A DNA stretch of 64,000 nt. Source: an uncultured Phycisphaerales bacterium. GTDB taxonomy: Bacteria > Planctomycetota > Phycisphaerae > Sedimentisphaerales > Anaerobacaceae. Under the pieces are notes generated by a model that searched no databases, was not told where the DNA came from, and worked only from the letters and a program-made list of their open reading frames with translations. The stretch lies in contig OY970359.1 in NCBI GenBank assembly GCA_963718665.1, positions 2,080,001 to 2,144,000 of the forward strand, in the 5' to 3' direction. The translations under genes and the position numbers were made by a program. Each line of letters begins with the position of its first letter. Positions within the stretch are counted from its first letter, which is position 1. Below are positions 2,750 through 39,962 of this stretch, in pieces.

Positions 2750-4075
2750 CTAAGCTAATTTTTTGTGGCTAAATTTTTTTTTACCTTCTGCGTAGTCGGC
2801 GACGATTTGGCCTGAGCCGAGGAGTTTCCATTTATAAATCAGGAGGCCTTCAAGACCGACGGGGCCGCGGGCGTGAATCTTCGTCGTGCTTACGCCCACT
2901 TCCGCGCCTAAGCCATAGCGGTAGCCATCGCTGAAACGTGTGCTGCAATTCCAGAAAACGCCAGCGGAATCCACTAAATCGAGGAACCTTTCAGCGGTCG
3001 CCTTATCCTGCGTAACAATCGCATCGGTATGATGCGAGCCATAGTGGTTTATATGTTCGATGGCCTCGTCAACGCTTTCGACGACCTTTATAGACAGGAT
3101 GTAATCGAGATATTCGGTTGACCAGTCCTTTTCGGTGGCGGGTTTGACTTTGATGATTGAACGGGTTTTCTTGCAGCCGCGAAGCTCTACGTTTTTTGCG
3201 TCGAAAGCGGCTTTCACCTTTGGCAAAAACTCCTTCGCGATTTTACTATCGACGAGAAGCGTTTCGGTAGCATTGCAGACGGCTACATACTGGCACTTCG
3301 AATCGACGGCGATTTTGACCGCCATATCGAGAGCCGCTGCCCCATCGACGTAAACGTGGCAAATACCTTCCGCGTGGCCAAGGACGGGGATATTTGTGTG
3401 GTTCATTATGTAGCGGACAAATTCATTTGAGCCGCGTGGAATGACGAGGTCGATGTCCTCATCCATCTTGAGCATTTCAGCGACATCCTGCCGGGTTTCT
3501 AATAACTGAATCCACCCATCTGGTATTCCTTCTGAACGCTGTCCGCTGTCCCCTGAACGCTGACACGTTGCTTCGGCAATTACTTTTGCGAGTATTTTAT
3601 TTGTATTGGCTGCTTCGCTTCCTCCTTTGAGAAGGACGGCGTTTCCGCTTTTCAAACACAGCGTTGAAATCTGGACAAGGGCATCGGGTCTTGATTCGAA
3701 TACGACGCCGATGACGCCGATGGGGCAACTGACTTTGTAGAGATTCAATCCTTCGTCGAGTTCGGTTGCAGTGAGCGTTTTGCCTACGGGGTCATCGAGT
3801 TTGATTAAGCTTTCGATACCAGCACAGACATCCGCGATTTTGCCCTCGTCGAATTTCAGGCGTTTGAGCAGGGGTTTTGCTAATTTGCCCGCCGCGGCGG
3901 GTAAATTTTTTTCTGCCAGCCGAAGGTCTTTCTGATTGGCGGCGATTATTTCCGCACTTCTGTTTTTCAATGCCTCGGCTATCCGCGCAAGGGCGGCGTT
4001 CTTCGCATCGGTTTTAACAGCCGATAACAGTATCGACGCCGACTTCGCTTTTTTGGCTTTTTCCGCTATACTCAT
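2750..4075 (-). CDS. proA: Gamma-glutamyl phosphate reductase
   Basis: PIGVIGVVFESRP, KGGSEA, CNATETLLV, NCSTRFSDG and STTKIHARGPVG motifs. Confidence 0.97.
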   Translation of the reverse strand: MSIAEKAKKAKSASILLSAVKTDAKNAALARIAEALKNRSAEIIAANQKDLRLAEKNLPAAAGKLAKPLLKRLKFDEGKIADVCAGIESLIKLDDPVGKTLTATELDEGLNLYKVSCPIGVIGVVFESRPDALVQISTLCLKSGNAVLLKGGSEAANTNKILAKVIAEATCQRSGDSGQRSEGIPDGWIQLLETRQDVAEMLKMDEDIDLVIPRGSNEFVRYIMNHTNIPVLGHAEGICHVYVDGAAALDMAVKIAVDSKCQYVAVCNATETLLVDSKIAKEFLPKVKAAFDAKNVELRGCKKTRSIIKVKPATEKDWSTEYLDYILSIKVVESVDEAIEHINHYGSHHTDAIVTQDKATAERFLDLVDSAGVFWNCSTRFSDGYRYGLGAEVGVSTTKIHARGPVGLEGLLIYKWKLLGSGQIVADYAEGKKKFSHKKLA

Positions 4076-29989: not shown

Positions 29990-30062
<73 letters not shown>

Positions 30063-30516
30063 TTGTCATAACCTATTTAAGTACTTGCCCTTCGTTACTC
30101 ATTTACTTAAACCCCACTTTGATGTGAAATTGCTCTTGGCGTCATTTTGGCGCCAGTCTTTTTTGACTCATCGACGCTTTCGAGCAGCTTGTTTTGTTGA
30201 ATTGGTCGGCGTTCCTTTGGTTCCGCGATATAATTCCTATGTCGGGAGCGTCTTCGTGGGCTTTTGAAGTTATGCAGGAAGGCGGCATAATGGTTGAGAT
30301 GAATATTTTTACAGTACGGGAGTGCCCCAATGAGATAAATTGACGTAAGTGCTTGACGTGAAGGGTATTAGATGGATAAATAAGAAGTCGCGGTAACTTC
30401 TTATACAGAAGGAAGCAGTCTGTGTCTGCCGTATTATAAAAACTGTATAATCATTGTTGGATGGCATGTTCCCGTATGCGTCCTTCTAACATGCGAAAAA
30501 TTTTAGGGAGTCATCA

Positions 30517-31248
30517 ATGGATTTAAATCACAGGATAAAGGAAATTGCTGAGATATGGGGAGCAGACTTTTGTGGTGTAGCTGACTTGTCACTGGCCCAT
30601 GATGCGATCCTGGCACAATGCGGACCGGAGATAGCAGCATATCCCCGGGCAATTTCTGTTGGGATTGTGTTGCTGCATACCATTGTTGATCAACTGCCAC
30701 ACCGTGCCAATCGGGCAGTGGCAGTAAGCTATCGGCACCACGGTTATGAAGTGATCAATCAGCGCCTTGATTTTCTTGCTTCTCGTGTAAGTGGTTTAAT
30801 TCAACGAGAAGGATATCAAGCTTTACCTCTCTCGGCGGCGAAGCGGGTAGATGACGAACGGCTCTGTGCGGCGTTTTCACACAAGCTTGCGGCACATTTA
30901 GCCGGATTAGGCTGGATTGGCAAAAGCTGCTTATTGGTGACCCCCGAAGAGGGGCCGCGAGTGCGTTGGGTCACAGTTCTCACCGATGCTCCGTTACCCG
31001 CGACAGGCAAGCCGATGGAAGAACAGTGCGGCAGTTGTAATGAGTGTGTGGAGATATGCCCCGTCCATGCCTTTACGGGGGAAGCTTTTCGCGCATCTGA
31101 GCCGCGTGAGAAACGGTATGATGCCAATAAGTGTGATAGATACTTTGTAGCGATGAGGAAAAAAGACCCTGAGTTGGCAGTATGTGGCTTGTGCTTGTAT
31201 GTCTGCCCATATGGAAAACAGCGAAATCCTGAGCGGGCGGGTCTGTAA
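30517..31248 (+). CDS. QueG/reductive dehalogenase-like double 4Fe-4S protein
   Basis: [41 protein letters not shown] and CGLCLYVCP motifs. Confidence 0.8.
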
Positions 31249-31385
31249 ATCAATGTGCCACCTAACAACCGCATCCCGTATTATAAAAAAACTCATCCGA
31301 TGCTAAGTATTTGGGAAACCTGGTATTTTAAGCAGTTTATTTTGTTGAAACTGGTTGACATAGCATATCTCGTTTTTCTTTGCTA

Positions 31386-31821
31386 CTATATCTGGTAGTC
31401 CGTCTGCTGACCCTTTTTCGCTTTATCGAGAGCGTCCTGCAATGTCGTTGACCGCAGGATATTGGTAACAGCCCAATGAACCTGGTTCCAAATAGGTCTT
31501 GCTATACAATCAGCGGCCCGTGCGCAGGAGCTTTCGTTCATCACGCACTCAACGGTTATGACCGGCCCTTCAAGAACATTGAATATCTCACTGAGCTTAA
31601 TCATTTCCGGCGGTTGAGCCAAAATATAGCCACCCCTAGCACCACGCTGACTTCCTATAAGGCCCGCCGATTTTAGTATCACCATTAATTGCTCAAGATA
31701 TTTAACCGAAATATATCCTGGTCTTAGCAATCACCTTGGTCTGGAGAGGCCCTTTGCCAAAATGGTCCGCCAGTTCCAATATTGCAAGCATCGCATATCT
31801 TGTTCGAGTCGATAGTTTCAT
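31386..31821 (-). pseudogene. Rrf2-family regulator (CymR/IscR-like), frameshifted
   Basis: MKLSTRTRYAMLAILELA...IAK in one frame and ISVKYLEQL...SQRGARGGYILA...C..C..C in another; shift near 31710-31727. Confidence 0.85.
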
Positions 31822-31836
31822 GGTTAATTCTCCACT

Positions 31837-31978
31837 ATTCCTACTGCACTGGTAGTATATTATACGAACAAACTGCAAACTGACATTAAAAAATAACAAA
31901 ATTTTTTTAAAAAAGTGTTTGACGCAGGTTTTTTGATATGGTATCATTCCCATTATATCCGTAGGATTAGTAGGATAT
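31837..31978. promoter_or_regulatory. Two putative Rrf2 operator quasi-palindromes in the divergent promoter
   Basis: ATTCCTACTGCACTGGTAGTATA (31837-31859) and ATATCCGTAGGATTAGTAGGATAT (31955-31978). Confidence 0.5.
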
Positions 31979-32011
31979 GGTTATACGAAACATAACACAG
32001 AAAGGTAATAT

Positions 32012-32206
32012 ATGGCTATAAAACAAGATAATAATGAAAACGCAGCAAACGACGCCATCATTAAAGATATTCGAAACGCGGTTGTAGGCCTTGATTATGG
32101 AACCGTAACAATAAAGGTGCACAACGCAAAGATAACACAAATCGAGATAACCCAGAAAAGACGCTACGATGACAGCGGCTTAGTTGAGAGAGGGGGTGGC
32201 ATTTAA
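32012..32206 (+). CDS. YezD/DUF2292-family small protein
   Basis: LDYGTVTIKVHNAKITQIEITQKRR pattern; family typically leads sulfur operons. Confidence 0.8.
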   Translation: MAIKQDNNENAANDAIIKDIRNAVVGLDYGTVTIKVHNAKITQIEITQKRRYDDSGLVERGGGI

Positions 32207-32341
32207 CGTAAGCAGTGTTTTAGGCCAAGCGGTCAGGCCGCGTTGGCTGAAGTGATATATGTTTGAATAAAAAATATTAATTACCCGCAGGAACAACCAG
32301 TCATCTGGAAACCACCTGCCAGACAGTAAGGAGATTTTCAG

Positions 32342-33154
32342 ATGAAGAAGTTACTTGTTGTAAGTTTGGTTGTTTTTGTAAGTATTTTTGCGAATATGGC
32401 TTTAGCAGGTGTTCCACTAAACAATGTTGAAGGAGTCGGCGGTATCGCATTTAACCCCCTTGCGTACACGGCAGGCACAAACGGTGACGCAAATTCATTC
32501 TTCGGCGAAAACATCAGCAAGCCGCAGATTGGTTTGTGGAACATTCATCTTCACGAAAAAGGTATCGACTGGACAACGTTCGGCGTCGCGGAAACATTTT
32601 TCAAACGTGTCGAGCTTTCATACGGCCACGAGACGGTTGACTTTACAAATTCCAAGACAATAAATAAAGACAATTTCGGAGCGAAAGTGCTGCTGCTTTC
32701 CGAAGGCGATATTCTGCCGGCGATTTCAATCGGAGGGGTCTTTAAAAACACCACACAGGAACTACTCAACTCATCAAATTCAGGAGCTGACTACTATTTG
32801 GTTGGAACAAAGCTCATTAAGGCGCTGCCATGGCCGGTGCTGTTATCCGGCGGCGTGCTTTCCACCAATAGCCAGACACTTGGCGTTCTCGGATTCAACG
32901 ACAGCAGAAAAGAAGTGTTGTTCGGAAACGTCGATGTCATTCCGCTGTCAAACGCCGCGGTCGGCTTCGAATACAGACAGGGAGCACATTACGACGATTG
33001 GAAAGATGCCAACTACTGGGATGCACACGTTGCCTGGTTTGTGAACTCGAACCTGATGCTGGTTGCGGCGTACGTCAACACCGGTGACCAAGGATCAACG
33101 AAAGCATTTGGTCTCGGCGACGGACTCGTATTAAGCGCTCAGTACCAATTCTAA
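32342..33154 (+). CDS. Outer-membrane beta-barrel protein (DUF3034-like)
   Basis: Signal peptide, EGVGGIAFNP motif, alternating strands, C-terminal aromatic YQF. Confidence 0.65.
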   Translation: MKKLLVVSLVVFVSIFANMALAGVPLNNVEGVGGIAFNPLAYTAGTNGDANSFFGENISKPQIGLWNIHLHEKGIDWTTFGVAETFFKRVELSYGHETVDFTNSKTINKDNFGAKVLLLSEGDILPAISIGGVFKNTTQELLNSSNSGADYYLVGTKLIKALPWPVLLSGGVLSTNSQTLGVLGFNDSRKEVLFGNVDVIPLSNAAVGFEYRQGAHYDDWKDANYWDAHVAWFVNSNLMLVAAYVNTGDQGSTKAFGLGDGLVLSAQYQF

Positions 33155-33193
33155 ATTTAAAAAACTCATATTGTAACGAAAGGAGTGTATTAA

Positions 33194-34486
33194 ATGAGCA
33201 AAATTGACCAGAAACTGAAATCGGAATCGATACTGCTACACGGCGGGCAGGAGCCCGACCCGACAACGGGCTCCAGAGCTGTGCCGATTTACCAGACAAC
33301 ATCGTACCAGTTCAAAAATACCGAGCACGCCGCCAACCTATTCGGCCTCAGAGAGTTCGGCAACATTTACACGCGAATTATGAACCCCACCAATGACGTG
33401 CTCGAAAAGCGAATCGCTCTTCTGGACGGCGGCGTCGGCGCACTGGCAGTCTCAAGTGGGCAGGCGGCAAGCACGCTGGCGGTTCTGAATATCGCGCAGG
33501 CAGGCGATGAAATTGTGTCCGCGGATAATCTTTACGGCGGGACATACAACCTGTTTCATTACACGCTGCCGAAGTTCGGGGTAAACGTCAAATTCGTAAA
33601 ATCGAATGATTTGGCCGCGTTTCAAAAGGCCATAACGCCACGGACGAAGGCGATTTACGCAGAATCGATAGGCAACCCGAAATTAGACGTTGCGGATTTA
33701 GAGGGCATTTCCAAGGTTGCCCACAAAAACGGTGTTCCTTTTATACTGGACAACACCGTTTCACCCTACCTGCTCCGACCATTCGACTTCGGAGTGGACA
33801 TCATTGTGTATTCGGCGACGAAGTTTATCGGCGGGCACGGGACATCCATTGGCGGGTTAATTGTCGATTCCGGAAAGTTCGACTGGACAAACGGCAAGTT
33901 CCCGCTGATTGCAGACGCGGACCCGAGTTATCACGGCCTGAATTTCGTCGAGGCGCTGAAGCCATTGGGCAATATCGCCTATATTATCAAGGCCCGTGTA
34001 ACTCTCTTGCGCGATGTCGGGGCTGCCCTATCGCCATTCAACGCGTTTCTGTTCCTTCAGGGACTGGAAACACTGCACCTGAGAATGCCGAGACACTCGG
34101 AAAATGCGCTGGCAGTGGCTAAATATCTGAGCAAACACCCCAAGGTCTCGTGGGTGAATTACCCGGGTCTTGATTCAAGCCCAGACAAAGAAAGAGTGAA
34201 AAAATATCTGCCCAAGGGTGCTGGAGCAATTCTGGGCTTCGGGATTAAAGGCGGCTCGGAGGCAGGAAGAAAGTTTATCGATTCGCTGGAACTGATTTCG
34301 CACCTTGCAAATATCGGCGATGCTAAGACCTTAGCCATTCATCCGGCTACGACCACGCATCAGCAGTTGTCGCCTGAGGAGCAGTTAGCGACCGGCGTAA
34401 CGCCTGATTTCGTGCGGCTGTCAATAGGCATCGAGAACGTCGATGACATAATCGCGGATATCGAACAGGCATTGAAAAAGGTATGA
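33194..34486 (+). CDS. metY: O-acetylhomoserine aminocarboxypropyltransferase (sulfhydrylase)
   Basis: [33 protein letters not shown] and [10 protein letters not shown] motifs. Confidence 0.92.
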
Positions 34487-34507
34487 ACATAAGTAAGGAG
34501 AAATAAA

Positions 34508-35443
34508 ATGAGCAGGATATTTAAAGATATAACCAGGACCATCGGCAACACGCCGTTGGTGCAACTGAACAGAATTACGGAAGGCCTGAACGCCACGGTA
34601 TTGGCCAAGCTGGAATCGTTCAATCCTCTTTCGAGCGTCAAGGATCGCATCGGGATAGCGATGATTGAAGATGCCGAGAGAAGAGGTCTGCTTGGCAAGG
34701 ACTCAGTGATTATCGAGCCGACGAGCGGCAACACCGGAATCGCGCTGGCGTTTGTCGCGGCGGCGAAGGGTTACCGGCTGATACTGACTATGCCCGAAAC
34801 GATGAGCGTCGAAAGGAGGCAGTTGTTCAAAATCTTCGGCGCGGAATTGGTGCTTACCGAAGGCCCGAAGGGAATGAAAGGCGCAGTCGAAAAATCGGAA
34901 GAGCTTGCCAAAACTACACCAAACAGCATTATCCTGCAGCAGTTCAACAATCCTGCTAACCCGGAAATACATCGCAGAACAACTGCTGAAGAGATATGGA
35001 ACGATACCGACGGCAAGGTGGATATATTGGTGGCTGGCATCGGCACAGGCGGCACTATTACCGGAGTCGCCGAGGTAATCAAGCAACGCAAAAAGACATT
35101 CAAGGCGATTGCTGTCGAACCCGAATCCTCGCCGGTGCTGTCCGGAGGAAAGCCGGGGCCACATAAAATCCAGGGGATAGGCGCGGGCTTTGTGCCGCAG
35201 GTTTTGAACAGGGAAATAATCGACGAGATTATAAAAGTTAAAGACGCGGACGCGGGCTCTACTGCCAGACTATTGGCGAAGCTGGAAGGTATTCTCGGCG
35301 GTATCTCGAGCGGAGCTGCTTTATGGGCTGCGCTGGAAGTGGCAAGGTGGCCTGAAAACGCTGGCAAGACAATCGTTGTTGTCCTGCCCGATACTGGTGA
35401 ACGATACCTTTCCACATGGTTGTTCCAGGAAGTACAAACATGA
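34508..35443 (+). CDS. cysK: Cysteine synthase A
   Basis: [27 protein letters not shown] and PDTGERYLS motifs. Confidence 0.96.
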
Positions 35444-35519
35444 TAACAGAGAAAGTGAGAGAGCAATTAAGCAGTGTTGGCGTTGTCGCAGGTAACATAG
35501 GAAAGGAGATAAGATACCT

Positions 35520-35699
35520 ATGCCGTTTATTAACCTGAAGCTGGTCGGCAAACTGACCAAAAAGCAAAAGGAAATAATCGCTCGCGAGTTTTCTCAAACG
35601 TTGTTTGAGGTCGCGGGTAAAAAGAAAGAAAGCACGTATCTGGTCATTGACGAAGTCAAAGGGATCGATTGGGCACAGGGGGATAAATTCTTCGGCTAA
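35520..35699 (+). CDS. 4-oxalocrotonate tautomerase family protein (59 aa)
   Basis: Manual translation MPFINLKLVGKLTKKQKEIIAREFSQTLFEVAGKKKESTYLVIDEVKGIDWAQG...; catalytic Pro1; AAGGAG SD. Confidence 0.85.
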   Translation: MPFINLKLVGKLTKKQKEIIAREFSQTLFEVAGKKKESTYLVIDEVKGIDWAQGDKFFG

Positions 35700-35717
35700 A
35701 CTGGTAATAGAGAGATT

Positions 35718-35784
35718 ATATACTGCTCCCCCTTAAAAAATACCACCATATTTTGGCCTATTCCTTAACGGGGGAGCAGTATAT
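35718..35784. repeat. Inverted repeat element (MITE-like or long terminator)
   Basis: ATATACTGCTCCCCC ... GGGGGAGCAGTATAT, 15-bp perfect arms. Confidence 0.65.
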
Positions 35785-35957
35785 TAGCTTTGTCTTCCAA
35801 TTGTATCTGGCCGGCGTCATTCTGGTGTCAGTGATGTCTGTGTTACGAGTGTATTTACAGTGCGTAACCAGTTTATTGCCACTATGGAGCCATTATTGAC
35901 GCCCAAATATCACACATAAATATATGAAGGACAAGCACTTGCGAGCGGAAATCATAT

Positions 35958-36002
35958 ATGGCATGCAAGAGGTCGCGGGTCCGAATCCTACTGGCTCCAT
36001 TG
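35958..36002 (+). repeat. att-like direct repeat: tRNA-Ala 3' half, copy 2
   Basis: ATGGCATGCAAGAGGTCGCGGGTCCGAATCCTACTGGCTCCATTG. Confidence 0.9.
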
Positions 36003-36391
36003 CTATAAGTTACTGTCCCACTCAAAAATTCATCCGGCCATAAAAGTTGACGTTTTTTGGATGTGGATGGGGGGAAATTGCTTATTGGCAAGTTGATATT
36101 AACTGATTTTGGAAGGGGCTTTCTCTGGCCGGAACGCGTTTTTTTGCTTAATCTCCATTCTCGTACTATAAAAAATTCGTCCAACGCACGAAACGGCGCG
36201 CATCCGACAGCAGGATTACGGGTAAGTTAGCTACAAAACTATCAGGCGGCATTGCAGATTCCGATACGCTGAATCTCCCCATCTATGCGAAAAAACATAG
36301 TCATTTCACCTGTATTGTCTACGTTTTTGAGTTGACTTGATGCTTAAATATGGGCCTGATGGGTGGGGGATTAGTAATGAAAGGTTCAATT

Positions 36392-36730
36392 ATGACCGCC
36401 ATCTGGAAGGTAACGGAAGCAGACATCCTAAGCAGGGGTGAAGTGGAGGAGATTTGGTCGCAGTTATGTTTAAGGTCAGTTCGCTCGCGGAATGGCCGCC
36501 AGAGCCGGGTCATCTTCTGCCTGTCTGCCTTTTGCGGTCTGCGCGTATCGGAGATATGCGGCCTTCGCCTCTGTGATGCCAAGTTGACCATTCTCCGTCC
36601 GGTGCTGGAGATAAGACCACAGATTGCAAAACAACATCGACGCCGTAGTGTGCCACTATGGAGATTACCTACGGCCCTGGCCTGTCTTTTGGATTGGAAG
36701 GCCCAGCGTCGGGAAGGGCAGCGGAGATAA
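36392..36730 (+). pseudogene. Truncated tyrosine recombinase/integrase
   Basis: FCGLRVSEICGL (box I Arg) and AKQHRRRSVPL present; ends before the HxxR and catalytic Tyr motifs. Confidence 0.8.
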
Positions 36731-36828
36731 CTCCCTGCTTAACTCTACTTTCTCGCGCAGCGCAGGGTTTCCCTGCCAAATCACTTGACCAAATACGTTT
36801 TTCTAGTATTATCTATCTCGTTCAAAAC

Positions 36829-36936
36829 TATCGCATCTATGGCCCGCATCAGCCGAGCAGCTTTTTCCCTCTGAGCATTATCAAACAAACCACGCTGCAT
36901 TCGGTCTTAGGGCACAAGGCCAATCAGGATTAAGCC
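36829..36936 (-). pseudogene. Remnant of the UmuC/Y-family polymerase C-terminus
   Basis: Manual translation GLILIGLVP*DRMQRGLFDNAQREKAARLMRAIDAI with internal stop; QxxLF clamp-binding motif. Confidence 0.6.
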
Positions 36937-37062
36937 ATTGGATTGTTGTAACCTGAGTAAGATTTTGATATTATTGCAGAATTGAAAAGCTTGGTTGCGT
37001 AGCCGAGCGTTTAGTATGGGAAATGTCAGATTGTTTATAGTTTTGCTAATTGAGAAGATAAA

Positions 37063-37914
37063 ATGGATAGTATACAGCAAATAATTTCCAAATTTCTTAA
37101 TCTCGGTATTGTTAGTATAGCTCTTTCTGTCCTACTTTATGATAAATTTGATTTTCCTCATCGTGATATCGTGGTCAGCATTGTTATTATAGTTATCGTT
37201 CTGTTTTTAGTATTTATGATATTATATTATGCGATTCGATGTGCTTTATATGAAATTAAGGTTCGTACCCAGAGCATAATTGGAGAAAGGATGGAATATA
37301 CATGCCAATTTATTAATAACAAGGGGACGCTTGGTGATACTGTTCGATATAGACTACGTAATATTTCTACTATACCTCTGATGAAAGTATTTGTAGATTC
37401 GGAAGGTTTTGCTAAGAATATTAATTTCGTGCCAAATTATTATTTTGAGGAGAGAAGCAAATTGCCCGACGGCAAAATTAAAGTTATTGGAAACAATGTA
37501 TCATTATCCGAATACCCAGAATATTCTTCGGGGATTAAAATTTATCAAGGTTTGTGGGGGGTAACCATTGAACCTCCACTTCAACCTTCTGAATCAGTAA
37601 TATTTGCAAGAAGTAGTATCGATGATGTTGTTGAAGATAGGGCTTTTGCACCGGAGGGGACCGATTTTATTTTTGCCTCCACAATACCATTTCGTTCTCT
37701 TTATATTGTTATTCATGCTCCTCCTGGGTATAAGATATCAAAGGCAAAACGAACTGTGGTTTCACAATCTGGAAAGGAAATTGTATTTGGTAATAATAGG
37801 GGCAGCTTCGCCGAGATAAATCGGAATACCATGATCTGGAAAATATCATATTCAAATCCATCCTTAAGATATAAAATACATTTTTCGTTAGAAGAAGTTT
37901 CAAATGCCGGATGA
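37063..37914 (+). CDS. Hypothetical protein: two N-terminal TM helices plus beta-rich soluble region
   Basis: Intact 283-aa AT-rich ORF; no family recognised. Confidence 0.8.
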   Translation: MDSIQQIISKFLNLGIVSIALSVLLYDKFDFPHRDIVVSIVIIVIVLFLVFMILYYAIRCALYEIKVRTQSIIGERMEYTCQFINNKGTLGDTVRYRLRNISTIPLMKVFVDSEGFAKNINFVPNYYFEERSKLPDGKIKVIGNNVSLSEYPEYSSGIKIYQGLWGVTIEPPLQPSESVIFARSSIDDVVEDRAFAPEGTDFIFASTIPFRSLYIVIHAPPGYKISKAKRTVVSQSGKEIVFGNNRGSFAEINRNTMIWKISYSNPSLRYKIHFSLEEVSNAG

Positions 37915-38498
37915 ACATGAGAAAATATAGAATATTTAGGTTTCTATGCACAAAATGTGGTAGGTGTTGCAGAACTCGCCGAATTGGAGAAACCGTAGTT
38001 TTATATGAAAGGGACATTGTTATTCTTGCCGATGCACTTGGAATAAAAGAGGATGCTTTCATATCCATCTATGCTAAATGCTATGAATACAATTATATTA
38101 CTCAATCTTCTTGTCTATGCATACGCAGAATTGTTCTTCCATGCAAAAAAGGTTGTCCGTTTTTGGAAAAAAATATTTGTTCAGTCCATAGTTTTAAACC
38201 TTTTCAATGTGCGGCGTGGCCTTATCTTGAACCGACGTTAAGTTTTGCACATTATAATATGAAATCTTTAGCTTGGTGTCCCGGTTTTGGGCGAGGTTAT
38301 GTTTTGCCTATGGACAAGATTCACAAGTTAATAAATGAACAGAAACAATATGAATCTGATTATTATTCACAAGTTAAAGATCCTACAAGTAAAGTTTGTA
38401 AATGGTTAAATATAATGAAAACGGAAAAGGCATTTGTTATTAAATGCGATAATGATGGTTATTTTAGAAAGGCTACTTTATTGAGAGGAGATGTTTAA
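37911..38498 (+). CDS. YkgJ-family cysteine cluster protein (CxxCxxCC)
   Basis: CTKCGRCC, CPFL, CSVH, KPFQCAAWP and CPGFG motifs; ATGA overlap with the upstream gene. Confidence 0.85.
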   Translation: MNMRKYRIFRFLCTKCGRCCRTRRIGETVVLYERDIVILADALGIKEDAFISIYAKCYEYNYITQSSCLCIRRIVLPCKKGCPFLEKNICSVHSFKPFQCAAWPYLEPTLSFAHYNMKSLAWCPGFGRGYVLPMDKIHKLINEQKQYESDYYSQVKDPTSKVCKWLNIMKTEKAFVIKCDNDGYFRKATLLRGDV

Positions 38499-38546
38499 AT
38501 GAGTGTTCAGTTACCACCAAAACCAGTTGCACCTAAAACTAAATAA
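38499..38546 (+). CDS. Putative 15-aa peptide MSVQLPPKPVAPKTK
   Basis: ATG abuts the upstream TAA; GAGGAG SD ends 8 nt upstream. Confidence 0.5.
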   Translation: MSVQLPPKPVAPKTK

Positions 38547-38843: not shown

Positions 38844-38890
38844 GCATGGCATGCAAGAGGTCGCGGATTTGAATCCCACTGGCTCCATTG
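38844..38890 (+). repeat. att-like direct repeat: tRNA-Ala 3' half, copy 3
   Basis: GCATGGCATGCAAGAGGTCGCGGATTTGAATCCCACTGGCTCCATTG. Confidence 0.9.
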
Positions 38891-39050
38891 GCATATCCGG
38901 GGTAACTTTGCTTTTTTATGCCCTCTGTTTTCGCTGTTAACTATTTTGCTGCCAATCGGCTGGTCTGAATTATTGCCGGCCACATTTCTCCGTTGCCAAT
39001 GAGTATTCTCTGTGTTATCTTAACCGCTGTAAAACTGATGGAGAACGCTG

Positions 39051-39962
39051 GTGGAACTGACATGGTCAATTAGATTGAGAATCGCGGCGGCAGCGGCAGT
39101 GGGTATCGCCGTAATAGGCGTATATGCTTGGCCTATTGTTGCGCCCGCGGATCCGTTCGGTGTTGTCTCTGTTACCAACAGCACAATAGGTTCTTATGGC
39201 GTACTTGTATTGTTGGGACTGGCATTTGGCGTCGGTCTGATAGCGTATTTCTTATCGTGGCCATACGGCAGTCGAATCGGGATATTGGCAGTGCCGGCGG
39301 GGCTGGCTGTCTGGGCGGTGCGCAGCGGCGATATAGGGACATTGATGCAGCTCAATACCTCTATCGTTCACAGGCAGCAGATTTACTCGACGTTTTGCTG
39401 GGAGCCGTTGCTTTGGCTGTCAATAGTAGTTGCGGGTTACCTCGGTGTGTTTCTCGCCTCGCAAATTGTGCACCCGGCTGCAACCGGCGAAGCAGGCAAA
39501 CCACAAAAACGCAGTTTCGGCGTTCTTCTCAATATCGTAATAGCGGTTGTTGGTTCCGCGGTAGTTGCTCAGTTTTTTATCGGAATTTTAGCGCGTGATT
39601 TCACGATATGGGATTCGGCATCCGGCGCCGCAGTAGCTCAGCCCGCAATAGGCCAGATTGTATTTGCCGTGCTTGTTTCGTTTGGTATTGTCGGCTTTTT
39701 GACTCAAATGGTACTCGGTGTAGATTACATCTGGCCCGTTATAGGAACATGTCTGGTAAATTTCGTGGCAGTAAGCGCTTACGGCAAGTACAAAGTTCTT
39801 GAGTACTTCATCGAGCGCTGGCCTGCGATGTTTTTCTCCAATTCGGTTCTGGCGGTGTTGCCTGTTCAGATTGTGGCTTTCGGCTCACTCGGTGCAATCG
39901 CCGGATACTGGATGGCCGTCCGATATGATTACTGGCACCAGCACGAGGTCAAAGGCGAATAA
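39051..39962 (+). CDS. Multi-pass membrane protein, unknown function
   Basis: About 8 hydrophobic segments; GGAG SD before GTG. Confidence 0.8.
   Translation: MELTWSIRLRIAAAAAVGIAVIGVYAWPIVAPADPFGVVSVTNSTIGSYGVLVLLGLAFGVGLIAYFLSWPYGSRIGILAVPAGLAVWAVRSGDIGTLMQLNTSIVHRQQIYSTFCWEPLLWLSIVVAGYLGVFLASQIVHPAATGEAGKPQKRSFGVLLNIVIAVVGSAVVAQFFIGILARDFTIWDSASGAAVAQPAIGQIVFAVLVSFGIVGFLTQMVLGVDYIWPVIGTCLVNFVAVSAYGKYKVLEYFIERWPAMFFSNSVLAVLPVQIVAFGSLGAIAGYWMAVRYDYWHQHEVKGE

Follow-up and report, generated by a model that had tools for sequence, protein, structure and literature searches.

A rare three-gene module encoding a two-helix membrane protein, a YkgJ-type protein and a short proline-rich peptide in a tRNA-bounded islet of a Phycisphaerales bacterium

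Organization of the three-gene module

The window, a 64,000-nucleotide stretch of contig OY970359.1 from an uncultured Phycisphaerales bacterium, contains three tightly coupled open reading frames on the top strand. ORF1 (37063-37914, 283 aa) encodes two N-terminal hydrophobic helices followed by an all-beta domain and belongs to an unnamed family. ORF2 (37911-38498, 195 aa) encodes a YkgJ/CxxCxxCC (PF03692) protein, and ORF3 (38499-38546) is a 15-codon frame for the proline-rich peptide MSVQLPPKPVAPKTK, which contains the motif [VI]-x-[LI]-P-P-x4-P. ORF1 and ORF2 overlap in ATGA at 37911-37914, and ORF2 and ORF3 meet in TAAATG at 38496-38501. A Shine-Dalgarno (SD) sequence for the peptide, GAGGAG (38485-38490, top strand), precedes the ATG by 8 nt and is part of the 3′-terminal coding sequence of ORF2. 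The module is AT-rich: the GC content of ORF1 is 0.344 and that of ORF2 is 0.332, against 0.492 for the genome. An earlier note on this DNA had described the three frames as intact, AT-rich and tightly coupled; the coordinates, both junctions and the SD site were all as claimed. DNA contigs of run X1, which may be the source sample, carry the module and the adjacent integrase stub without differences.

The module is cargo of a tRNA-bounded insertion

All three intact, coupled ORFs are present in an islet of 2.9 kb located between repeats of a tRNA-Ala 3′ end. The integration target is an intact tRNA-Ala(GGC) identified by ARAGORN at 29990-30062 (top strand). Two att-like copies of its 3′ end, each a 55-nt repeat on the top strand, form the left boundary (35956-36010, 87% identical to 30019-30073) and the right boundary (38844-38898, 91% identical to 30019-30073) of the islet. 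A truncated tyrosine recombinase (36350-36730, top strand) precedes the module. This 126-aa stub matched PF00589 with 22.2 bits, which is under the cut-off, and only over profile positions 18-80 of 172, in agreement with the earlier claim that the neighbouring integrase is broken. A copy of the stub with 92% identity is present elsewhere in the host genome (G000:C1:2343594-2343929), and its frame runs further there. The same note had named a broken umuC. The translation of 36784-36906 (bottom strand) may resemble the UmuC C-terminus; it gave no Pfam match at E<=10, and umuC was dropped as an established identity for lack of Pfam support, leaving a possible remnant.

The conserved core gene downstream of the islet starts at 39051. 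In 4 of 23 same-genus genomes an intact tRNA is found 69-969 bp from this gene, compared with about 9 kb here, and hence about 9 kb has been inserted in the genome under study. Two of the 23 flanks show the tRNA 3′ half only, and in 17 there is no tRNA within the fetched 1.5-kb flank. The insertion is made up of two att-bounded blocks, with the module as the cargo of the block farther from the tRNA. The complete islet contains no protease, transporter, regulator or radical-SAM gene, and no known defence gene.

Several further features of the surroundings were recorded. The other att-bounded block (30074-35955) separates the tRNA from the islet. It encodes a 4Fe-4S protein (PF13484) and a tautomerase-like ORF, and presumably also an Rrf2 regulator, an O-acetylhomoserine sulfhydrylase and a cysteine synthase; it looks like a sulfur-assimilation cassette that was apparently inserted. 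A longer copy of the islet left end and integrase, 86% identical, is located at G000:C1:2343230-2344250; the cargo behind it differs and includes an AT-rich 515-aa ORF. About 90 bp immediately upstream of ORF1 (36938-37029) have five further copies in the genome with 76-89% identity, and many contigs diverge at the ends of this repeat, which is possibly a portable promoter or an element end.

Homologous loci and distribution

Among 50%-identity representatives we found 36 relatives of ORF1 at E<=0.001, 15 of them at <=1e-10; gene context was read for one of the 36. The order of a two-helix (2TM) protein, a PF03692 protein and an SD-led peptide was repeated in both homologous loci that were fetched, L004 and L005, so the comparison covers three loci in total, two of them on short contigs. 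This was the outcome of a check proposed in the earlier note: in 2/2 loci both large genes are present together in the same order and are followed by a small proline-rich ORF. The identity to the proteins of L004 and L005 is 38-46% for ORF1 and 32-39% for ORF2. In L004 the ORF1 relative (46% identical) overlaps the PF03692 gene by 7 nt, and a 16-aa peptide, MGVEIPPIKLPPTEKK, is encoded at L004:3011-3061 behind an SD-like GGAG. In L005 the PF03692 gene starts 14 nt after the ORF1 relative (38% identical), and a 29-aa peptide, MNYETISIPPMPRPPRPPRPQPPMPPLPR, is encoded at L005:2715-2804 behind an SD-like GGAGG. Both SD-like sequences occupy the same position as GAGGAG in the window.

The surroundings differ between the loci. 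The L004 module has a GC content of 0.47 against 0.60 and is preceded by a DNA methylase gene. The 3′ end of the methylase gene is duplicated over 188 bp with 91% identity, one copy being found on each side of this module (L004:1202-1389 and 3168-3355), which suggests that a cassette was inserted by recombination. The start of another gene, with 46 residues present, is found at L004:3587-3724; we take it to resemble the N-terminus of an AVAST-type nuclease, and these residues gave no PADLOC or NCBIfam match. In L005 a RelA/SpoT-domain gene is located 309 bp upstream and has a weak match to the PADLOC candidate PDC-S33 (E 6e-7). The three differing neighbourhoods, each suggestive of cargo, fit a role in genetic conflict and are no proof of it.

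The module is rare and patchy. Whole-genome searches found it in this genome alone among 41 relatives, and in no other genome of samples of 401 from the phylum, 401 from the order and 401 from the class, which overlap and include many incomplete genomes. Pattern scans of GTDB confirmed no further locus, tblastn searches of plasmids gave no module match, and the module was not found in scans of viral contigs, where only a single weak match of 38 residues (L003) and two generic YkgJ matches at 26% (L008 and L009) were seen.

The proline-rich peptide

The three peptides (15, 16 and 29 aa) all fit [VI]-x-[LI]-P-P-x4-P and have little in common beyond the prolines and this N-terminal pattern; the hydrophobic positions before PP are kept in 3/3. 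The motif appeared in none of 20,000 shuffles at each locus when the 165 nt around each stop were shuffled, a test that is partly circular because the motif was drawn afterwards from the same three peptides. For that reason the fairer count is that of an SD, a small ORF and at least 25% proline together, which occurred in 0, 2 and 6 of 20,000 shuffles across the three loci. In the host genome an SD-led ORF of 10-35 aa is located at the stop of 14 of the 2,263 ORFs of at least 150 aa, and among these 14 a proline content of at least 25% is reached at this locus alone. Four other small ORFs at stops are proline-rich and have no SD.

None of the three peptides has a signal sequence, and a division into leader and core is not visible in the 15-16 residues of the two shorter ones. 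The earlier note had proposed that a lysine-containing peptide is modified. The lysine counts are 3, 3 and 0, the L005 peptide having four arginines and no lysine, so modification of lysine is not general and lysine is ruled out as a conserved target; conservation is seen in the prolines and in the pattern at the N-terminus instead. The three peptides have no modifiable side chain in common.

The membrane protein

Of the 36 ORF1 relatives, P0016 (a repeat artefact), P0017 and P0022 (fragments), and P0036 and P0039 (partial matches) were left out of an alignment of the family. The AlphaFold (AF2) model, based on an alignment of 33 rows (pLDDT 92.5, pTM 0.84), consists of a first helix at residues 2-25, or 14-25 by a narrower count, a second helix at 34-68 and an all-beta domain at approximately 70-280. 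The best structural match was 6s7o_E (VIA Z 13.7, rmsd 3.3, 181 aligned residues), which we take to be the ribophorin I chain of oligosaccharyltransferase, followed by an inter-alpha-inhibitor heavy chain (ITIH; Z 11.0) and the N-terminal domains of M1 aminopeptidases (Z 8-11). Aminopeptidase scaffolds and domains of luminal or extracellular proteins make up the best matches, and the soluble domain is predicted to be a beta-sandwich resembling ribophorin I and the M1 aminopeptidase N-terminal domain. M1 N-terminal domains help to bind the N-terminal amine of the substrate. An M1-like fold in ORF1 would fit the handling of such an amine, a common fold in itself showing no function. Conserved ORF1 residues include N100, D112, G115, R183 and R269. 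No Pfam family is common to the 33 family members, ORF1 itself has no Pfam, NCBIfam or PADLOC match, and no solved structure was matched by sequence at E<0.001 by either the ORF1 or the ORF2 family.

Two hydrophobic segments are present in all 12 proteins examined, with a net positive charge on the N side in 11 and on the C side in 8. This bias favours an orientation with both ends inside the cell (N-in/C-in), which would make the beta domain cytoplasmic. The hydrophobicity of helix 1 is only moderate (1.7-2.4), and the domain could therefore face outward, away from a peptide that has no export signal. Apart from its two helices ORF1 has no output domain.

The YkgJ-type protein

ORF2 scored 26.2 bits against PF03692, above the cut-off of 23, and four relatives scored 30-36 bits, which bears out its assignment as a YkgJ-type protein; proteins of this family are very widespread, with members over the cut-off in 10 of 14 control genomes. 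Together with two further close sequences the proteins of the three loci make up a small subfamily of five, found with a query built from three of the five. The motif CX2CX2CC (CxxCxxCC) is present in 5/5, and eight cysteines are invariant in 5/5 (C13, C16, C19, C20, C82, C90, C100 and C123). The fourth member, P0042, read as a protein sequence, is labelled Verrucomicrobiota and ends in KGGE, while the L005 protein ends in KGGK. The KGGE tail suggests the kind of C-terminus that an overlapping SD produces; a GG-type tail is absent from the fifth member, P0043. The ORF2 model (pLDDT 66.8) has two predicted beta-hairpins, at 56-77 and 171-189, and that these may be docking edges is a guess. The best Z of a fold search was 2.7, with a model whose Cys motif is below pLDDT 50.

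To our knowledge, no activity has been assayed for the majority of PF03692 proteins. Our literature searches found activities for only two YkgJ/PF03692 relatives, FliB and DpdM, and no report of a peptide maturase in PF03692. FliB is reported to hold a [4Fe-4S] cluster through CX4CX3CC, to have eight conserved cysteines and to methylate flagellin lysines with SAM (PMC8598068). For DpdM, whose homologue in E. coli is YkgJ, methylation of dPreQ1 is reported and binding of two metals is predicted (10.1101/2023.04.13.536721). Both of these targets are primary amines. ORF2 resembles both enzymes in having an N-terminal four-cysteine motif and four further conserved cysteines. It differs in spacing, which is CX4CX3CC in FliB and CxxxCxxCC in DpdM but CX2CX2CC in the ORF2 subfamily (5/5), and in its surroundings, as there are no flagellin or dpd/que genes beside any of the three loci, two of which are short contigs. 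The reported substrate of FliB is also flagellin lysine, whereas one candidate peptide here is lysine-free.

Comparison with known systems

ORF1 had been linked to the 2TM-beta effectors of anti-phage systems. In architecture the link stood: Cap15 and OptE also have two N-terminal membrane helices and a soluble ligand-binding or beta-rich domain and are encoded beside an enzyme gene (PMC12657218). At the level of family it did not. The Pfam model for Cap15/S-2TMbeta matched 0/33 ORF1 family members at E<=0.01 and did not match ORF1 at E<=1, and membership of ORF1 in the Cap15 family was rejected; no Cap15 or OptE chain was among the ORF1 fold matches listed. The domain of Cap15/OptE is a nucleotide-binding beta-barrel with a nucleotide cyclase as partner, whereas ORF1 has a larger predicted ribophorin-I/M1-like sandwich, a PF03692 partner and a peptide gene behind. 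No CD-NTase or mCpol cyclase gene is adjacent in the complete islet or in L004, and the RelA/SpoT-domain gene of L005 is not a cyclase. The second neighbour of ORF1 in the ESM Atlas (0.94) is a cluster automatically named S-2TMbeta, which carries no common Pfam family and gave a recognition score below threshold. It is a point for S-2TMbeta kinship that finds no support in the remaining tests.

Among published arrangements the closest is that of a DUF6338 gene of Pseudomonas stutzeri, which is reported to be followed by expressed proline-rich small proteins (PMC10433244). There too a conserved gene precedes tiny proline-rich ORFs, and their expression demonstrates that peptides of this type can be made by the cell. 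The enzyme is absent from that arrangement, whereas here the gene of a metal-cluster protein separates the peptide ORF from the membrane gene and the motif is kept across loci; the DUF6338 domain was found in 0/33 ORF1 family members. RiPP clusters are similar in that a short precursor-like ORF is coupled to a putative cysteine-rich modifying enzyme in 3/3 loci, but the islet has no radical-SAM, protease or transporter gene. PADLOC 2.0 gave no matches for ORF1, ORF2, eight ORF1 relatives and two ORF2 relatives. Searches of open-licence PMC and bioRxiv literature found no description of the trio; entries for the two large genes may exist in the supplements of large defence-prediction studies. 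Since the module did not qualify as an S-2TMbeta, FliB, DpdM or DUF6338 system in the tests applied, we rate it as an undescribed, new kind of unit with a putative function.

Possible function of the module

Starting from what was observed, namely the order and coupling of the genes, the motif of the peptide, the eight cysteines and the mobile context, we tentatively favour, at somewhat less than an even chance, the explanation that the module is a conserved unit spread by horizontal transfer: ORF2 would methylate the peptide, and the peptide would bind the cytoplasmic domain of ORF1, gating a membrane effector of phage defence. ORF2 likely methylates the co-encoded proline-rich peptide. By analogy with FliB and DpdM, methyl transfer would depend on a metal cluster and SAM and would be directed to a primary amine. 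As one peptide is lysine-free, the candidate methyl acceptor is the N-terminal amine, which all three peptides have. In this model ORF1 would probably be a phage-defence effector. The steps for which we would claim least are that the peptide may bind the predicted cytoplasmic beta-sandwich and switch ORF1, and that it may keep a membrane-damaging effector inactive for as long as infection does not cut off the supply or the tagging of the peptide. The nearest logic for such gating is that of Panoptes (OptS-OptE), in which a 2TM effector is kept inactive by the product of an enzyme (PMC12657218). We counted for this model the gene order in 2/2 loci, the peptide backgrounds, the P0042 tail, the eight cysteines, the FliB/DpdM chemistry, the two hydrophobic segments with their charge bias, the mobility and the Cap15/OptE-like layout. 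Counted against it were the number of loci (three), the circularity of the motif, the P0043 tail, the lack of a defence-model match and of a known defence gene in the islet, the luminal or extracellular fold matches, the moderate hydrophobicity of helix 1, the cysteine spacing and the scarcity of assayed PF03692 proteins.

The peptide could instead be an unmodified partner of the same unit, such as an antitoxin, adaptor or decoy, with the YkgJ protein acting as a metal-binding sensor or modifying ORF1 or an incoming phage protein. We hold this to be rather unlikely, although it would account for the lack of a shared modifiable side chain (lysine counts of 3, 3 and 0) and of a visible leader/core division, and FliB is reported to act on a large folded protein (PMC8598068). 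Against it, the micropeptide is coupled directly behind an enzyme-like gene in 3/3 loci. This slot is the usual position of the substrate in peptide-modifying clusters. A distinctly unlikely alternative is peptide signalling of a RiPP-like kind unrelated to phages, where the enzyme would mature the peptide and ORF1 would be a receptor, exporter aid or immunity protein with its beta domain possibly outside. The extracellular or luminal peptide- or protein-handling domains among the fold matches, the absence of a PADLOC match and the expressed small proteins reported behind the P. stutzeri DUF6338 gene (PMC10433244) would agree with it. On the other hand, the complete islet has no protease, transporter or regulator gene, the peptides have no signal sequence, the charge bias favours a cytoplasmic beta domain, and ORF1 has no output domain besides its two helices.

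It is also conceivable, but improbable, that the cassette has two genes only and that the proline-rich ORF serves translation, through ribosome stalling or coupling, yielding no functional peptide. Pro-Pro motifs slow ribosomes, and the peptides differ in length with little in common beyond prolines; yet the peptide gene closes the series, no further gene being coupled to it downstream in the window, and the hydrophobic positions before PP are kept in 3/3. That the small ORF is a chance sequence would be in keeping with its size of just 48 nt, but we consider this very improbable, as SD and motif recur in 2/2 loci against the genome and shuffle backgrounds.

The favoured explanation of a methylated gating peptide has a bolder form, which we regard as unlikely: a new class of immune switch that signals through a methylated micropeptide in place of a nucleotide, in which a proline-rich peptide of 15-29 aa, continually methylated by a PF03692 enzyme, would keep a 2TM beta-sandwich pore shut, and a loss of translation or SAM caused by the phage, for example by phage SAM lyases, would lead to membrane damage. 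If so, the YkgJ family would gain its first peptide substrate. If the peptide gates ORF1, the module would be a peptide-modification analogue of the nucleotide-gated 2TM effectors. The built-in 15-aa candidate substrate makes PF03692/YkgJ chemistry directly testable with a synthetic peptide. Annotation misses such systems, as the third gene is below every size cut-off.

Elsewhere in the host genome, at G000:C1:2464848-2466472, a short ORF with repeated PHRVVSQPVVRAVV units precedes a radical-SAM-like ORF (CxxxCxxC), and the short ORF is possibly a multi-core peptide precursor.
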